From Candidatus Scatosoma sp. (GTDB taxonomy: Bacteria > Bacillota > Clostridia > Christensenellales > Borkfalkiaceae), in the NCBI GenBank assembly GCA_045651305.1, contig JAZRSE010000151.1, positions 1 through 24,675 on the forward strand: DNA of 24,675 nt. The letters are read 5' to 3'. The translations under genes were made by a program, and so were the position numbers. The notes beneath the pieces were generated by a model. The model was not told where the DNA came from and did not search any database. It saw only the letters and a list, made by a program, of their open reading frames with translations. Below, one piece after another: positions 1,383 to 21,687 of this stretch (within the stretch, counting starts at the first letter, position 1; the number at the start of each line of letters is the position of its first letter).

Positions 1383-1618
1383 GTGATTTGCCCGTTGGGC
1401 GTGATTTGACGGCGTTGCCGTCGTGATTTGCCTACGGCGTGAATTGGCTTGCGCCGTGATTTGCACGCCGAGGGCGTGCGTTGTGGCTATTATTTTTATG
1501 ACTTTTTTTCGTATTTATTCTTCCGCAACGCATTGCAAGGCAATGCAATTCACGCGGTTGAAAAACCGCAATTCACGAAATTTATTTCAATTCACGCAAG
1601 ATTTATCTTGCAATTCAC
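1383..1618. repeat. Linker-hairpin array, locus 1 (two inverted arms)
   Basis: Left arm: GTGATTT at 1383, 1401, 1423 and 1456 and GTGAATT at 1439, each followed by a G...C-closed palindrome, ending GTTGTGG (1480-1486). A 36-nt AT-rich spacer follows. Right arm: CCGCAAC (1523), then four palindromes each followed by AATTCAC (1547, 1570, 1589, 1612). Confidence 0.9.
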
Positions 1619-1668: not shown

Positions 1669-2379
1669 TTATACCAACACCCAACCGATGATGATGTTGA
1701 TGAGGTTGTGATTATACAGTACGCGAAGAAGTAGACAATCGCCAAAGAAGTTGTTGATGCCTGCAACGGGGATAACGCCAAGCACGGCGATAACGGCGCT
1801 CAATAGCAGCCAACCTTGCACCAAGCCCACGAGAAAGCCGAGAAAACGATTCAATCCGCTTATAAACGGCATTTTATTTATGAGGGAGGAAAGCAATCTC
1901 TTAACGATATTAAGGAGCAATTTCGCAACGATAAACAACAGGAAGAACACAATGAGCGACGTGGCGAATTTACCAAGCGGCGCGCCGATAACCATCGCAA
2001 GCGTCGTGCCTGCCGCAATCGTTTCGTTCCCTACGCTATTGACGACGAATTTTGCAAGGAAGGCAGGAATTTTGTTCGCCTCCATACTCGCCTGCAAGCC
2101 CGCGTTCGAAACGTCCACGTTCAAGGCTTTTATCTTCCCAAGCGCCTTTGCACAAGCGTTTTGCATCACCTCTTGCAAGCCGAATAACCCGTTCGTCCAA
2201 CGCATTACGCTACGGAGCAACAATATCGCCGTTATAAATGCGAGCAGCGTGGTGATTAGACCGAACAAACAGTCTATAAACCCTCGCTTTGCCGCAAGCG
2301 CCGCAAACCCGATAATGAGCATTATCGCAAGAATATCCACAACCCAACACGCCCAAGCCGCGTTCAAGCCAAGCAACAT
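1669..2379 (-). CDS. CvpA-family (colicin V production-like) membrane protein, 236 aa
   Basis: Start moved to ATG 2379, which follows a GGAGG RBS. The N-terminal pattern 'VVDILAIMLIIGFAALAAKRGFIDCLFGL' and C-terminal 'NRFLGFLVGLVQG' are typical of CvpA. Confidence 0.75.
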   Translation of the reverse strand: MLLGLNAAWACWVVDILAIMLIIGFAALAAKRGFIDCLFGLITTLLAFITAILLLRSVMRWTNGLFGLQEVMQNACAKALGKIKALNVDVSNAGLQASMEANKIPAFLAKFVVNSVGNETIAAGTTLAMVIGAPLGKFATSLIVFFLLFIVAKLLLNIVKRLLSSLINKMPFISGLNRFLGFLVGLVQGWLLLSAVIAVLGVIPVAGINNFFGDCLLLRVLYNHNLINIIIGWVLV

Positions 2380-2581
2380 TTTTCTTCCTCCTTTCCCTTT
2401 CAAACGCTTGGATTTTTTCCCTATCCAACCGTTTTTATGCAAGCGTTTCGTCTATTATATCATATCTTTTGCTTTTTTTCAACTATATTAAAAAAATTGC
2501 ACCTCTTTTCTTCCTGCCTGCTCGTTTATTCTTTTTGCGATTAGGGAATACTCTATAAGCGGTTTTCGCAGGGAGGGAAAT

Positions 2582-9970: not shown

Positions 9971-11077
9971 TTATGCTTGATTGCCCGTACGCATAGGCAT
10001 TATAAGATATTGGAAACGTTTTTCGCCCGCGTTTTCAATGGTGAAAGGCGAGTTTGCCATATTGAACGAAAGCACGATTTTTTCTTCCGTCAACGCTTTC
10101 ACCGCGTCCAAAAGATATTTGCCGTTCATCGCAATTTTAAGCTCTTTACCCTCTAATTCCGTGTTCACCGTTTCTTCAATTTTACCCATATCCGAGTTTG
10201 CATTGATAACGATTTTACCGCTCTTAATATCGAAGATAACGAGGTTGTTCTTATCGCCGCGGGTAAGCACGCCTGCACGCTCGATACTTTGCATAAGCTC
10301 GCTCTTTAATACAATCGCTTCGCTTGCGAAATTGATAGGATAAATATTTTCCTTTCTAACAAATTCGCCTGCGTACAAACGGGAAGTAATCACCGTGTTG
10401 TTTACCTCTACGGAAATCTTGTTCTTGTCCGCATAAATTTTCAACGCCTCGTCCCCTTCAAGCATACGCGCAATTTCCGTAAGCGTTCTTGCAGGGCATA
10501 CGATTTTCATATTCCCGCCGTCCGTCGTTTCCGCCCAACCGCTCGCCATACGAAGTCCGTCCAAAGCCGTTGCGTAAAGCTTGCCGTCTTTCGCCTCTAA
10601 AAGACAGCCTTTCAAAATAGGTCTGCTCTCGTCCGTAGCACAGCAGAACGTTACTTTGGAAATGAGTTCCTTCAAATCGTTTTGCTTAATTTCGAAATAT
10701 TTATCTTGGGCGATTTTTTCGCCTGCCATCATAGGGAAATCGTCCGCGGGCAACGTTTGGATGTTCGTTTCGCTATCGCCGTAACGTACGATAATGCCCT
10801 TATCGTTGGAGGAGATAATCACTTCGCTATACGAAATCTTGCCCATAAAGTCTGCGAAGAATCTGCCGTTTACGCAAACTTCGCCCTCTTCTATAACTTC
10901 CGCTTTAATTTTCTTTTCAATGGAAATTTCTCCATCGTAAGCGGTCAAAATCAAAGAATCGTTTTCCGCCTTAATTTTAATGCACTCCAAAACAGGCGTC
11001 ATCGTTCTAATAGCGCAAGCCTTGCTAACGATAAATGCCGCTTCCGATAAAACCATCCCTTCACATACGAATTTCAT
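9971..11077 (-). CDS. dnaN: DNA polymerase III beta sliding clamp
   Basis: 368 aa. 'PVLECIKIKAE..SLILTAYDGEISI', 'SRPILKG', 'ATALDGLRMA', 'NGKYLLDAVK' and a C-terminal 'YLIMPMR'. Confidence 0.97.
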   Translation of the reverse strand: MKFVCEGMVLSEAAFIVSKACAIRTMTPVLECIKIKAENDSLILTAYDGEISIEKKIKAEVIEEGEVCVNGRFFADFMGKISYSEVIISSNDKGIIVRYGDSETNIQTLPADDFPMMAGEKIAQDKYFEIKQNDLKELISKVTFCCATDESRPILKGCLLEAKDGKLYATALDGLRMASGWAETTDGGNMKIVCPARTLTEIARMLEGDEALKIYADKNKISVEVNNTVITSRLYAGEFVRKENIYPINFASEAIVLKSELMQSIERAGVLTRGDKNNLVIFDIKSGKIVINANSDMGKIEETVNTELEGKELKIAMNGKYLLDAVKALTEEKIVLSFNMANSPFTIENAGEKRFQYLIMPMRTGNQA

Positions 11078-19607: not shown

Positions 19608-19677
19608 GGGATTTGCCTAATAGGCGTGAATAGACGGCGTTTCCGTCGAGATTTGCGCGATAAAGCGCGCGTTGTGG
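19608..19677. repeat. Linker-hairpin array, locus 2 left arm
   Basis: GGGATTT-[GCCTA A TAGGC]-GTGAATA-[GACGG CGTTT CCGTC]-GAGATTT-[GCGCG ATAAAG CGCGC]-GTTGTGG. Same terminus as the locus 1 left arm. Confidence 0.75.
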
Positions 19678-19687
19678 TAAATTATAA

Positions 19688-19713
19688 TAGGGACGAGCAA
19701 CGCTCGTCCCTAC
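19688..19713. repeat. GTAG-type REP-like palindrome (may also terminate the upstream gene)
   Basis: TAGGGACGAGC-AAC-GCTCGTCCCTA, an 11-bp stem. The minus strand begins GTAG. A T-tract follows. Confidence 0.6.
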
Positions 19714-19751
19714 GTTTTTTCATAACCCTAATTTTTCGCCCCAATAAAAAC

Positions 19752-19972
19752 CTTTCACTACGCCATAGGCGTAATTTCACTTTGCATAGCAAAACTACAC
19801 TATGCCCTTGGCATAACTTCACTTGTCACAAGACAAACTTCACTATGCCCTTGGCATAACTTCACTTGTCACAAGACAAACTTCACTATGCCTTTGGCAT
19901 AATTTCACTTGTCGCAAGACAAATTTCACTATACCTTTGGCATAATTTCACTTGTCGCAAGACAAATTTCAC
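19752..19972. repeat. Linker-hairpin array, locus 2 right arm (includes four 43-bp tandem units)
   Basis: Eleven 7-nt linkers (ACTTCAC/ATTTCAC, variants CTTTCAC and ACTACAC) separate ten T...A-closed hairpins. Over 19801-19972, TATGCC-NNN-GGCATA alternates with TTGTC-NCAA-GACAA. Confidence 0.92.
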
Positions 19973-21687
19973 TATATTTGCGGTTTTACCAGCACCGTCT
20001 TATAATCGGTGTAAACGACGAACCCTGCTTTGCTTTTGCTCGGTTTTTTGACAAACTTGCGCTTGCAATAGTCCACGGGTATCTTGTCGCCCTCTCTCGC
20101 TTGCGAGAAATACGCGCAAAGCTGTGCGGCGTATAAAATGGTTTCATCGCGTACCTGCCCCCCTTCTGCAAGGATAATTACGTGGGAAGAGTGGTATTTT
20201 TGTACGTGCAACCATATATCGTCGGGGGAGGCGAGTTTCAAAAGCCGTTCGTTTTGTAAATTGTTTCTCCCTACGAGAATTTTCTTGCCGTCACGCTCAA
20301 ATTCTCTAAAGGGTACGGGCGCGTCTTTTTTATTCTTTTTGACGGTTGCTTTCGGTGCGCGCAGCAGTCCTGCGTCCAAAAGTTCCGTTTCAATTTCTTT
20401 CAAGTCCTCGTCCGTTTCGGCGAGCGCGATAGAAGAGGCGATACTTTCCGCATACGAAAGCTCGTTTTCGTCCGCTTTTTGCATAGGCAGTAGAATTTCC
20501 CTTGCGCGCTTTTGTTTGTTGTATTGTTTGAAATACCGTTGCGCGTTTTTCGCAGGGGAAAGCAGGGGGTCGAGCGCGATTTTTATGCTCTTGCCCTCTT
20601 CGTCGTACCAGTTGACGAGTTCTACAAAGCGCATACCCTTTTCAATGGCGTACAAATTCGCCGTCAAAAGCTCGCCCTTGATACGGTTTTCGTCCGCTTT
20701 GTCCGCCTCGCGCAGTTTTTCCGCCGTTTCTTGCAGACGTTTCGCCGTCTTTTTCACAAGCGTTTTTACACCGCTTTCCAAACGGCGTTTTTTATCGTCA
20801 AAGCCCTTTTTCGTTTCTCGCTTGGTGTAAAATTCGTCCTGCGCTTTGCAAAGAGAGGGCATCGCCACGCCCCCGTTGATTGGAAAGGCGAAAAAGTCGC
20901 AAATCACGCCGTTATCCATACGTATATGGGGGTTAGACGGCTCGTTCAAGCAAAAATCACCGATAAAATTCCACAACGGCGCGGTTGCCGACGGGGATAA
21001 ACAAAGGGCGAGAGAGCCGTTTATTTTCTCCGCTTTTAAGACGAGTTCCCTTGCCGTGGGAAGAGCTAAGCCCGAAACGGTGTCGAAGATATGTTGCGCC
21101 AACGTTTCGCTATCCACCGCCTCTTGCCTATTTGCCATAAAGTTTTTCAAGCGCGTAAAAATTCCCTCGCTATCAAAGGGGGAAACCTTGTCTTGGGGGG
21201 TGGGGTAGGCGTACTTTGCGCCTGCAAAGAGGATACGGTGCGTATCGTCCAATAGCGCCGTCGTTTTCAACGCGCCCAAAACAACCCCTTTCTCTACGAG
21301 AATTACGTTGGAGTATTTCCCCATTAACTCGCAAACGAGGGTGCGGTTTGCGCTCGAAAAATCGGTGGTACAATGCAAATCTATTTCCACAATCCGTTCA
21401 AATTCGTGTTGACGAATCGCCAAAATTTCCGCATTTTGCAAATGTTTTCGAAGGAGCATACAAAAATTGGGCGCGACGGCAAGCGGTTCTTTTTCCACCG
21501 TGGATAAACAAACGCGCGCATTTGACGCATTTGCGCTTAAAATGAGTTTAACCGTCGATTTTCCGGTGTATATAATAAAGGTCAGCTCGTCTTTGTTCAC
21601 TTGCGAGATGCGGTTGATTTTTCCGCCGACGAGAAGGTTGTTCAACTCGATTGTGCTGCGGCGGATATGAAAAGCGTCCTGTGGCAT
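19972..21687 (-). CDS. rqcH: Ribosome quality control factor RqcH (FbpA/PavA, NFACT family), 571 aa
   Basis: Start reset to MPQDAF (21687) after GGGGAGG. 'GGKINRISQ', 'NFCMLLRKHL', 'ELMGKYSNVILV', 'NAQRYFKQYNK', 'VGRNNLQNE', 'DIWLHVQKYHSSHV'. Confidence 0.93.
   Translation of the reverse strand: MPQDAFHIRRSTIELNNLLVGGKINRISQVNKDELTFIIYTGKSTVKLILSANASNARVCLSTVEKEPLAVAPNFCMLLRKHLQNAEILAIRQHEFERIVEIDLHCTTDFSSANRTLVCELMGKYSNVILVEKGVVLGALKTTALLDDTHRILFAGAKYAYPTPQDKVSPFDSEGIFTRLKNFMANRQEAVDSETLAQHIFDTVSGLALPTARELVLKAEKINGSLALCLSPSATAPLWNFIGDFCLNEPSNPHIRMDNGVICDFFAFPINGGVAMPSLCKAQDEFYTKRETKKGFDDKKRRLESGVKTLVKKTAKRLQETAEKLREADKADENRIKGELLTANLYAIEKGMRFVELVNWYDEEGKSIKIALDPLLSPAKNAQRYFKQYNKQKRAREILLPMQKADENELSYAESIASSIALAETDEDLKEIETELLDAGLLRAPKATVKKNKKDAPVPFREFERDGKKILVGRNNLQNERLLKLASPDDIWLHVQKYHSSHVIILAEGGQVRDETILYAAQLCAYFSQAREGDKIPVDYCKRKFVKKPSKSKAGFVVYTDYKTVLVKPQI

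Follow-up and report, generated by a model that had tools for sequence, protein, structure and literature searches.

A modular hairpin array in Candidatus Scatosoma as a probable solo copy of a dispersed, Gut-1-like element associated with PF05635 genes in Clostridia

The window analyzed here is a stretch of 24,675 nucleotides from Candidatus Scatosoma sp. (contig JAZRSE010000151.1 of assembly GCA_045651305.1), whose genome, designated G000, is a 1.30-Mb draft of 239 contigs with a completeness of 76%. Between positions 1383 and 1618 it contains an array of constant 7-nt linkers and small hairpins, which are arranged as two inverted arms around a core, and next to this array lies the terminator of a convergent CvpA-family gene. 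A second array with a related linker is present farther along the window. The features of the window that are discussed below are as follows:

1383-1618: hairpin-array element of 236 bp, probably a solo copy, read base by base
1383-1479, plus strand: left arm, G+C-rich, composed of five GTGAWTT linkers and their hairpins (sequence reading and shuffles)
1383, 1401, 1423, 1439 and 1456: the left-arm GTGAWTT linkers, with a G..C-closed hairpin after each
1480-1529, no strand assigned: core, consisting of the inverted repeat GTTGTGG/CCGCAAC with a 36-nt AT-rich loop in between
1530-1618, plus strand: right arm, A+T-richer, composed of four hairpins with AATTCAC after each
1547, 1570, 1589 and 1612: the right-arm AATTCAC linkers
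1629-1668: two-way terminator hairpin of the convergent CvpA-family gene, outside the element and kept at the empty site of the related genome G219
1669-2442, minus strand: CvpA-family gene, the convergent neighbour
19608-19972, minus strand: second array, with linkers of the sister class AYTTCAC (GTGAARU on the minus strand)

In the left arm the hairpins are 11, 15, 9, 10 and 17 nt long, the last of which (1463-1479) directly adjoins the core, and in the right arm they measure 17, 16, 12 and 16 nt. All nine hairpins are different and all are closed by G..C, with stems of only 3 bp in two of them. The two halves of the core, GTTGTGG (1480-1486) and CCGCAAC (1523-1529), are complementary with one G·T, and the 36-nt loop between them (1487-1522) is approximately 83% A+T; this is the 'long core' variant, the loop being about 9 nt in most copies. 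The linkers, hairpins and core listed in a preliminary description of the region match this reading base for base. The grammar of constant 7-nt linkers and variable hairpins in inverted arms is real, considering that a pattern of three linkers with gaps of 9-17 nt occurs five times in the window and 0.00 times in 100 shuffles. No promoter-like site and no promoter or terminator consensus was found inside the window copy. An array of intrinsic terminators (G+C stem plus U tract) was rejected as an explanation, the sole terminator-like sites being located at 1629-1660, outside the element.

The preliminary description had also proposed that structure rather than sequence is conserved in the hairpins, and this was borne out by two analyses. 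A survey of 537 inter-linker spacers (369 distinct sequences; 93 from G000 and 444 from other loci) revealed that a perfect stem of at least 3 bp starting from the spacer ends is present in 86% of the spacers from G000 and 72% of the others, compared to approximately 2.6% of shuffled spacers, and that 93% of the spacers are closed by G..C. When 62 different instances of the core-adjoining 17-nt hairpin were aligned, 97.9% of the 434 stem cells were paired (64% in shuffles), and compensatory two-sided changes were observed in 129 cells compared to 36 in shuffles, a number that none of 500 shuffles reached. Controls in which the alignment was slid gave only 28-50% pairing. One-sided changes of the G·U type were absent from all 434 stem cells of these 62 instances.

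The loops are equally distinctive. Triloops account for 152 of 270 hairpins, and 51 of these 152 read c-TNC-g on the linker-sense strand, which is c-GNA-g on its complement; GNRA tetraloops (20 of 77) were found on the complement strand and none on the linker-sense strand. In arrays beside PF05635 genes (see below), linker-sense loops of the T..C type outnumber those of the G..A type by 34 to 0 in the three largest linker classes and by 1 to 0 in a fourth class with four hairpins, giving 35 to 0 overall, while five GTGAAGT hairpins have neither loop type. The strand with stable GNA/GNRA loops reads hairpin-AAWTCAC. Owing to the inversion of the arms, this is the bottom strand for the left arm and the top strand for the right one, and in either arm its 5'-to-3' direction leads from the core out to the terminus. 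C-G-closed GNA triloops are classic and very stable DNA mini-hairpins, and G·U pairs are normally tolerated in functional RNA helices. The presence of GNA loops, the lack of G·U and the dominance of triloops therefore point to single-stranded DNA more than to RNA, and it appears that the hairpins act as single-stranded DNA on the hairpin-AAWTCAC strand, RNA being less likely. The asymmetry between G·T and A·C mismatches was discarded as an indicator of an RNA strand, as there were too few of them (7 versus 13).

At a higher level of structure, four stacked four-way junctions had been envisaged in the preliminary description, with linkers of the two arms pairing with each other. Folding of both strands revealed that 1383-1618 beats its shuffles, with z-scores of -4.0 for plus-strand RNA and -3.4 for minus-strand RNA, and folding as an isolated DNA strand gave -2.9. 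In the isolated RNA model, two inner linker levels are favourable, with pair probabilities of 0.6-0.95 except for a central U-U mismatch at level 0, and the stacked-junction structure has an energy of -79.9 kcal/mol, compared to -61.4 for the hairpins alone and -92.8 for the minimum free energy structure. In such a model, any inverted repeat of a 7-mer would be expected to show comparable inner pairing. Among 117 levels, paired linkers are complementary at their W position in 86.3%, compared to 86.9% expected from base frequencies; the arms are of unequal size in 23 of 36 elements; and in the window copy GTGATTT faces AATTCAC at three of the four levels, with a mismatch at the centre. Thus, the stacked junctions are thermodynamically possible in isolation, but with no arm-arm covariation, unequal arms and mismatched levels they receive no support from evolution.

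A search for other copies revealed that the window copy is not unique: approximately 20 loci with the array grammar and with homologous, ordered modules are scattered across G000, and more are present in other gut and rumen Clostridia metagenome-assembled genomes (MAGs). The real pattern has 52 matches in G000 and its reversed control has 0. The copies in G000 share the same build, with one G+C-rich arm, one A+T-richer arm and a core that is either short (loop of ~9 nt) or long (36 nt), and the right arm of the window copy is 88-96% identical to those of other copies. Gain and loss of modules were seen between copies that are otherwise 87-93% identical. The preliminary term 'variable hairpins' therefore holds within one element but not between copies in G000, which draw on a limited and ordered set of modules. 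The core can have either orientation with respect to the arms, and the G+C/A+T asymmetry of the arms is specific to the G000 subfamily. The number of linkers per arm peaks sharply at four (89 of 128 arms), which suggests a stoichiometric constraint, and unit length ranges from 16 to 25 bp with no helical phasing.

A pattern scan of one genome per prokaryotic species detected the array predominantly in MAGs of uncultured Clostridia from gut and rumen, including Ca. Scatosoma, 'Clostridiales bacterium SIG403/406/410', RGIG MAGs and Christensenella sp. UBA3798. The strict GTGAWTT pattern has a patchy distribution in the GTDB family, with only three of 151 genomes containing it (52, 44 and 3 matches; 0 for the reversed control), and a broader pattern that also admits the words GTGAAAT, GTGATAT and GTTATAT was found in 76 of the 151. 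No strain-level variants were recovered by an exact-protein look-up, by a metagenome scan or by two look-ups of sequencing runs. Eighteen pattern matches in IMG/VR, five of which were on giant-virus MAG contigs, were set aside as simple or tandem repeats other than this element.

Several contigs of G000 end inside arrays, and some copies have unusual arrangements. At C191:15100-15225, approximately 120 nt with inverted ends of their own (AAGTCGGA...TCCGACTT) split the core of an element that has an arm with eight linkers; the interruption lies near a contig end and may be either another small repeat or an assembly join. In addition, C110:2525-2917 and C102:1-389 are head-to-tail pairs of elements with an identical junction, in which the right end is followed by TTTTT and then by a hairpin without a leading linker. 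The identity of the two junctions implies that the element dimer itself was copied.

Comparison of orthologous sites provides information on how the copies come and go. The flanks of the window site can be aligned with G219 (76-77% identity) and G020 (about 74-77%), and in both genomes the 236-bp element is absent from the orthologous site. A cluster of DnaA boxes at 885-1335 of the window is conserved box for box in the same two genomes; judged by these alignments, the cluster is genuine and is inherited irrespective of the repeat. The tie to the cluster that had been suggested in the preliminary description is thus not supported, and neither is the idea of an oriC or DnaA-box accessory element, as the array is not conserved together with the boxes in G219 and G020. 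The same comparison bears on the possibility that the array is a set of double-stranded DNA operator or nucleoid sites serving the neighbouring DnaA boxes or local regulation. Such a role would agree with the distance of only ~50 nt between the element and the dense cluster, and with the position of gene-linked arrays just upstream of PF05635 promoters; however, it is largely refuted by the orthologous loci that lack the element yet conserve the boxes. Also against it, the approximately 20 copies lie beside unrelated genes, the units vary from 16 to 25 bp without helical phasing, and neither covariation nor strand-specific loops would have a meaning for binding to B-form DNA. We regard this explanation as scarcely tenable.

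Other insertion sites are polymorphic as well. Four sister species lack the copy on contig C169, their gaps at this site being 13-34 nt long compared to 196 nt. The site of the C236 copy is empty in G219, G020 and G024, G001 carries an element of its own there, and in G011 the array is absent and the gap is only 82 nt compared to 282 nt. For the C146 copy, the site in G020 is empty. The 'empty' sites may be deletions, given the existence of scars. In a separate observation, the C169-equivalent spacer in G020 (L192; G020:C303, ~10465-10658) contains an insert, unrelated and hairpin-rich, that spans ~190 nt and has different linkers, which suggests either a hot spot at this stop-codon/ribosome-binding-site spacer or fast turnover in place.

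The insertions follow a stop codon or terminator and precede the next ribosome-binding site, and their distance from the stop is often 0-4 nt. Comparison of filled and empty sites revealed no direct repeat that would represent a target-site duplication; one flank is often rich in A and the opposite one in T, and ATGAATT is frequently the terminal linker. Gene contexts were taken from a codon-bias caller, as naive calls of the longest open reading frame had given false contexts. By these calls, none of the real copies extends into a confidently predicted gene, and the only overlaps are a chance cluster of linkers inside a gene (C152) and a low-scoring open reading frame at C236. In 10 of 12 co-directional contexts in G000, transcription would meet the A+T-rich arm before the other arm, a bias compatible with a transcript as well as with a lagging-strand template. 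When core half-sites were used to examine polarity across species, no orientation bias emerged (16 '++' and 14 '--'), and this approach was dropped.

The array resembles a catalogued but enigmatic motif. Gut-1 (RF01706) was listed by Weinberg et al. (2010; PMC2864571) only among candidate non-coding RNAs, from human gut sequences, and no function was given. Its Rfam consensus, typed as sRNA, consists of three hairpins linked by GUGAAAU. An Rfam scan over positions 1000-2000 of the window at E <= 10 matched neither Gut-1 nor any other relevant family, and 1383-1618 was also left unmatched when the whole of G000 was searched with the Gut-1 model. The same model does match the second array of the window, at 19897-19974 on the minus strand with 59.3 bits (the gathering score is 50) and at 19747-19824 on the minus strand with 44.8 bits. 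The heptamer GTGAWTT differs from GUGAAAU at one or two positions and the architecture is shared: in both, short hairpins are joined by a constant heptamer, and both come from gut organisms, which were uncultured when the motif was described. Hence, the preliminary reading of the array as an unrecognized element is not supported, although the Rfam model misses 1383-1618, and we treat the array as a GTGAWTT-linker variant of the Gut-1 design rather than as a member by the Rfam model. There are also differences. First, Rfam models a single arm of three hairpins, whereas the arrays described here are two-armed, inverted, modular and dispersed and have a gene-bearing form. Second, the strand modelled in Rfam has U..C loops, whereas the stable GNA/GNRA loops lie on the opposite strand (as at 19897-19974 on the minus strand), and the catalogued orientation of Gut-1 may be wrong. 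We found no literature linking Gut-1 with PF05635 and none on repeats of Ca. Scatosoma.

The second array has further features of its own. Two-hairpin units in tandem make up its right arm, and its core holds a terminator-like hairpin followed by a T tract (~19690-19720). No PF05635 gene of its linker class was found in the 76%-complete G000, and G011 has one (L147).

G000 contains a single PF05635 gene, encoding an Avd-like, small four-helix-bundle protein of 116 amino acids (Pfam E = 1e-26; TIGR02436) whose closest solved structure is 2RLD (E = 1e-26); a PADLOC analysis of this protein returned only an insignificant match to SduA. The gene is part of a copy on another contig:

C133:2915-3476: full-length, gene-bearing copy, in which GTGAWTT-type arms surround the PF05635 open reading frame, which replaces the core loop

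In this copy the order is A+T arm, PF05635 gene and G+C arm. The solo copies align arm for arm to its arms with approximately 80-93% identity, and their prevailing polarity, with the A+T arm first, is that of the gene in the full-length copy. Since the solo copies and C133 share arm order, polarity and homology, the window copy can be assigned to a PF05635-linked hairpin-array cassette. In the spacer between fhs and glnS, the gene-bearing copy is present in G000 and G011 and absent in G219, and G024 has no array there; the same spacer contains a two-linker remnant (AAATCAC-hairpin-AAATCAC) in G020 (L215) and a lone terminal linker (ATGAATT) in G001 (L217). These remnants indicate that elements also decay by deletion.

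The association is widespread. PF05635 was detected in 39 of the 151 genomes of the GTDB family, and 29 of the 33 PF05635 loci fetched contain at least four copies of one linker word within 450 nt. The linked array is usually complete and two-armed and is located directly upstream of the gene; at two loci that were read in detail (L153 and L172), it lies between the upstream terminator and the PF05635 gene's own promoter. In addition, the clades of PF05635 proteins match the linker words (GTKATAT, GTGAAAT, GTGAWTT and ATGATGT), with six label changes on the tree compared to a minimum of five and a shuffled mean of 16.5, none of 200 shuffles being as low. This match supports a coherent gene-plus-array unit but is no proof of recognition, because neighbours are co-inherited and simple co-inheritance could produce the co-variation of clade and linker. 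Near-identical PF05635 proteins of the GTKATAT clade in different genera (L144 in G171 and L156 in G050; branch lengths of 0-0.01) suggest, on the basis of these sequences, that this gene-plus-array unit has recently moved horizontally. On the other side, five array-rich genomes (18-69 pattern matches; 83-95% complete) lack PF05635 even at E <= 10, implying that the protein is not needed for keeping arrays. Genes flanked by repeats are easily lost from MAGs.

How the element is mobilized was approached through searches for enzymes. Y1_Tnp (PF01797) gave no match in G000 (76% complete) or in G171, G075, G001, G011 and G219 (86-98%); four of these six genomes are 92-98% complete, and six of 14 control genomes were positive. 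The HUH nuclease or RAYT partner that had been put forward in the preliminary description is therefore not supported by the six genomes, and among the roles listed there a BIME/REPIN-like one comes closest in behaviour but lacks its HUH enzyme. In Escherichia coli and Pseudomonas, the REP, BIME and REPIN repeats that accompany RAYT are short intergenic palindromes with a conserved word beside the stem, and their units form inverted pairs and mosaics that are numerous and change fast. The arrays likewise have a conserved word beside an imperfect palindrome and units in inverted pairs. They differ in that their hairpins are much smaller (9-17 nt) and are direct repeats within an arm rather than alternating, and in that their gene encodes a four-helix-bundle protein and not a nuclease, with no RAYT. 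Movement of a REP/BIME- or REPIN-like repeat by a single-strand HUH transposase of the RAYT/IS200 type would share the logic of a short conserved word next to a hairpin, the inverted pair formed by opposite-strand units, the intergenic and clustered copies and the loops of a single-stranded DNA type; yet with PF01797 missing from all six genomes when controls were positive, and PF05635 being the only gene seen between the arms, this is a very improbable explanation.

A reverse transcriptase (RVT_1) was not found in G000, and its occurrence in 32 of the 151 family genomes does not track the array-rich ones; a diversity-generating retroelement (DGR) or reverse transcriptase was accordingly rejected as the mobilizer, being missing from G000 and from most array-rich genomes. 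Among 186 arrays, there was no far-apart pair of arms enclosing a transposase that could represent an autonomous form, and no excision product was found. These results also bear on an ordinary MITE, that is, an internally deleted DDE transposon whose outer linkers are the terminal inverted repeats (TGAATT...AATTCA) and whose inner linkers are extra transposase-binding sites. Extra sites of this kind are present in the ends of Tn7 and Mu. The TG...CA type of the termini, the several direct copies of the end word per arm and the insertion polymorphism would all be expected of such an element. However, no target-site duplication accompanies the copies, whose flanks have an A-run on one side and a T-run on the other; none of the 186 arrays is a transposase-bearing relative and the full-length copy encodes PF05635; and the strict covariation of the hairpins and the asymmetry of their loops would be left without a role. 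We consider a MITE of this type very improbable. Among non-coding repeats, the pneumococcal BOX elements are modular and dispersed, with a variable number of internal units. A minisatellite-containing MITE of Porphyromonas gingivalis has internal tandem repeats (PMC4596501). Both resemble the arrays in being modular, dispersed and non-coding with variable numbers of internal units, but their internal units are constant, whereas the hairpins here differ while pairing is kept.

A further alternative is that the array functions as RNA, either as a structured non-coding RNA or as an element embedded in mRNAs, which would be co-transcribed with its neighbouring genes and would stabilize or insulate transcripts or titrate an RNA-binding protein through its single-stranded GUGAAUU/AAUUCAC words. 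Rfam types Gut-1 as sRNA and its model matches the second array in the window; solo copies lie 0-50 nt from co-directional stop codons or ribosome-binding sites, so that most would be transcribed; and the orientation bias relative to transcription (10 to 2), the plus-strand folding z-score of -4.0 and the enrichment of GNRA tetraloops would be in keeping with such a role. However, an RNA helix would hardly be expected to show zero G·U in 434 stem cells despite 129 double changes, or a dominance of triloops (152 of 270 hairpins), and the strand with stable loops differs between the arms, which means that one transcript could not contain every hairpin in its favoured sense. The arrays at L153 and L172, flanked by an upstream terminator and by the promoter of the gene itself, and the window copy, in which no internal promoter-like site was found, also argue against it. 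On balance, we view a function as RNA as unlikely.

Taken together, it is probable that 1383-1618 represents a solo copy of a modular and dispersed hairpin-array element, one that is found in uncultured Clostridia of gut and rumen, is a variant of the Gut-1 design and derives from a selfish cassette of PF05635 plus array. The identity of the element and the behaviour of its family are well supported, and for the mechanism we infer the following. The word between the hairpins is predicted to be the recognition site of a protein, most plausibly a ring-forming PF05635 protein, and the protein-plus-array unit would behave as a selfish cassette that spreads and decays to solo arrays, with one- or two-linker scars as the putative end point of decay. 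The four words and the core half-site of a typical arm could suit a multimeric ring. More specifically, and only tentatively, these arrays may represent a previously undescribed selfish protein-repeat system, in which a PF05635 ring would read the 7-nt word on single-stranded DNA between GNA-loop hairpins and the unit would spread without a recognizable transposase.

Two known settings of PF05635 are relevant to the selfish-cassette interpretation. Intervening sequences of 23S rRNA, such as that of Coxiella burnetii, encode S23p, a PF05635 protein (PMC4990558). They are likewise small selfish inserts with a PF05635 open reading frame, but they reside in rRNA and have one long stem, whereas the arrays are intergenic, have arms built of words plus hairpins and have mostly lost the gene. 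Avd, an accessory protein of DGRs, is related to PF05635 (PMC10053308), and the C133 protein is a homologous small four-helix bundle, the difference being that G000 has no reverse transcriptase.

Gut-1 has been in Rfam since 2010 without an organism, partner or function, and PF05635/TIGR02436 proteins outside DGRs are likewise unexplained. G000 ties the two together, since one gene-bearing copy and approximately 20 solo copies use the same word. In practical terms, the arrays break MAG assemblies, and as they are located between the stop codons and ribosome-binding sites of housekeeping genes, they may affect the expression of these genes. If the selfish protein-repeat reading is true, it would give Gut-1 a function, and would provide a nucleic-acid partner for stand-alone Avd-like proteins and for the S23p open reading frames of rRNA intervening sequences.
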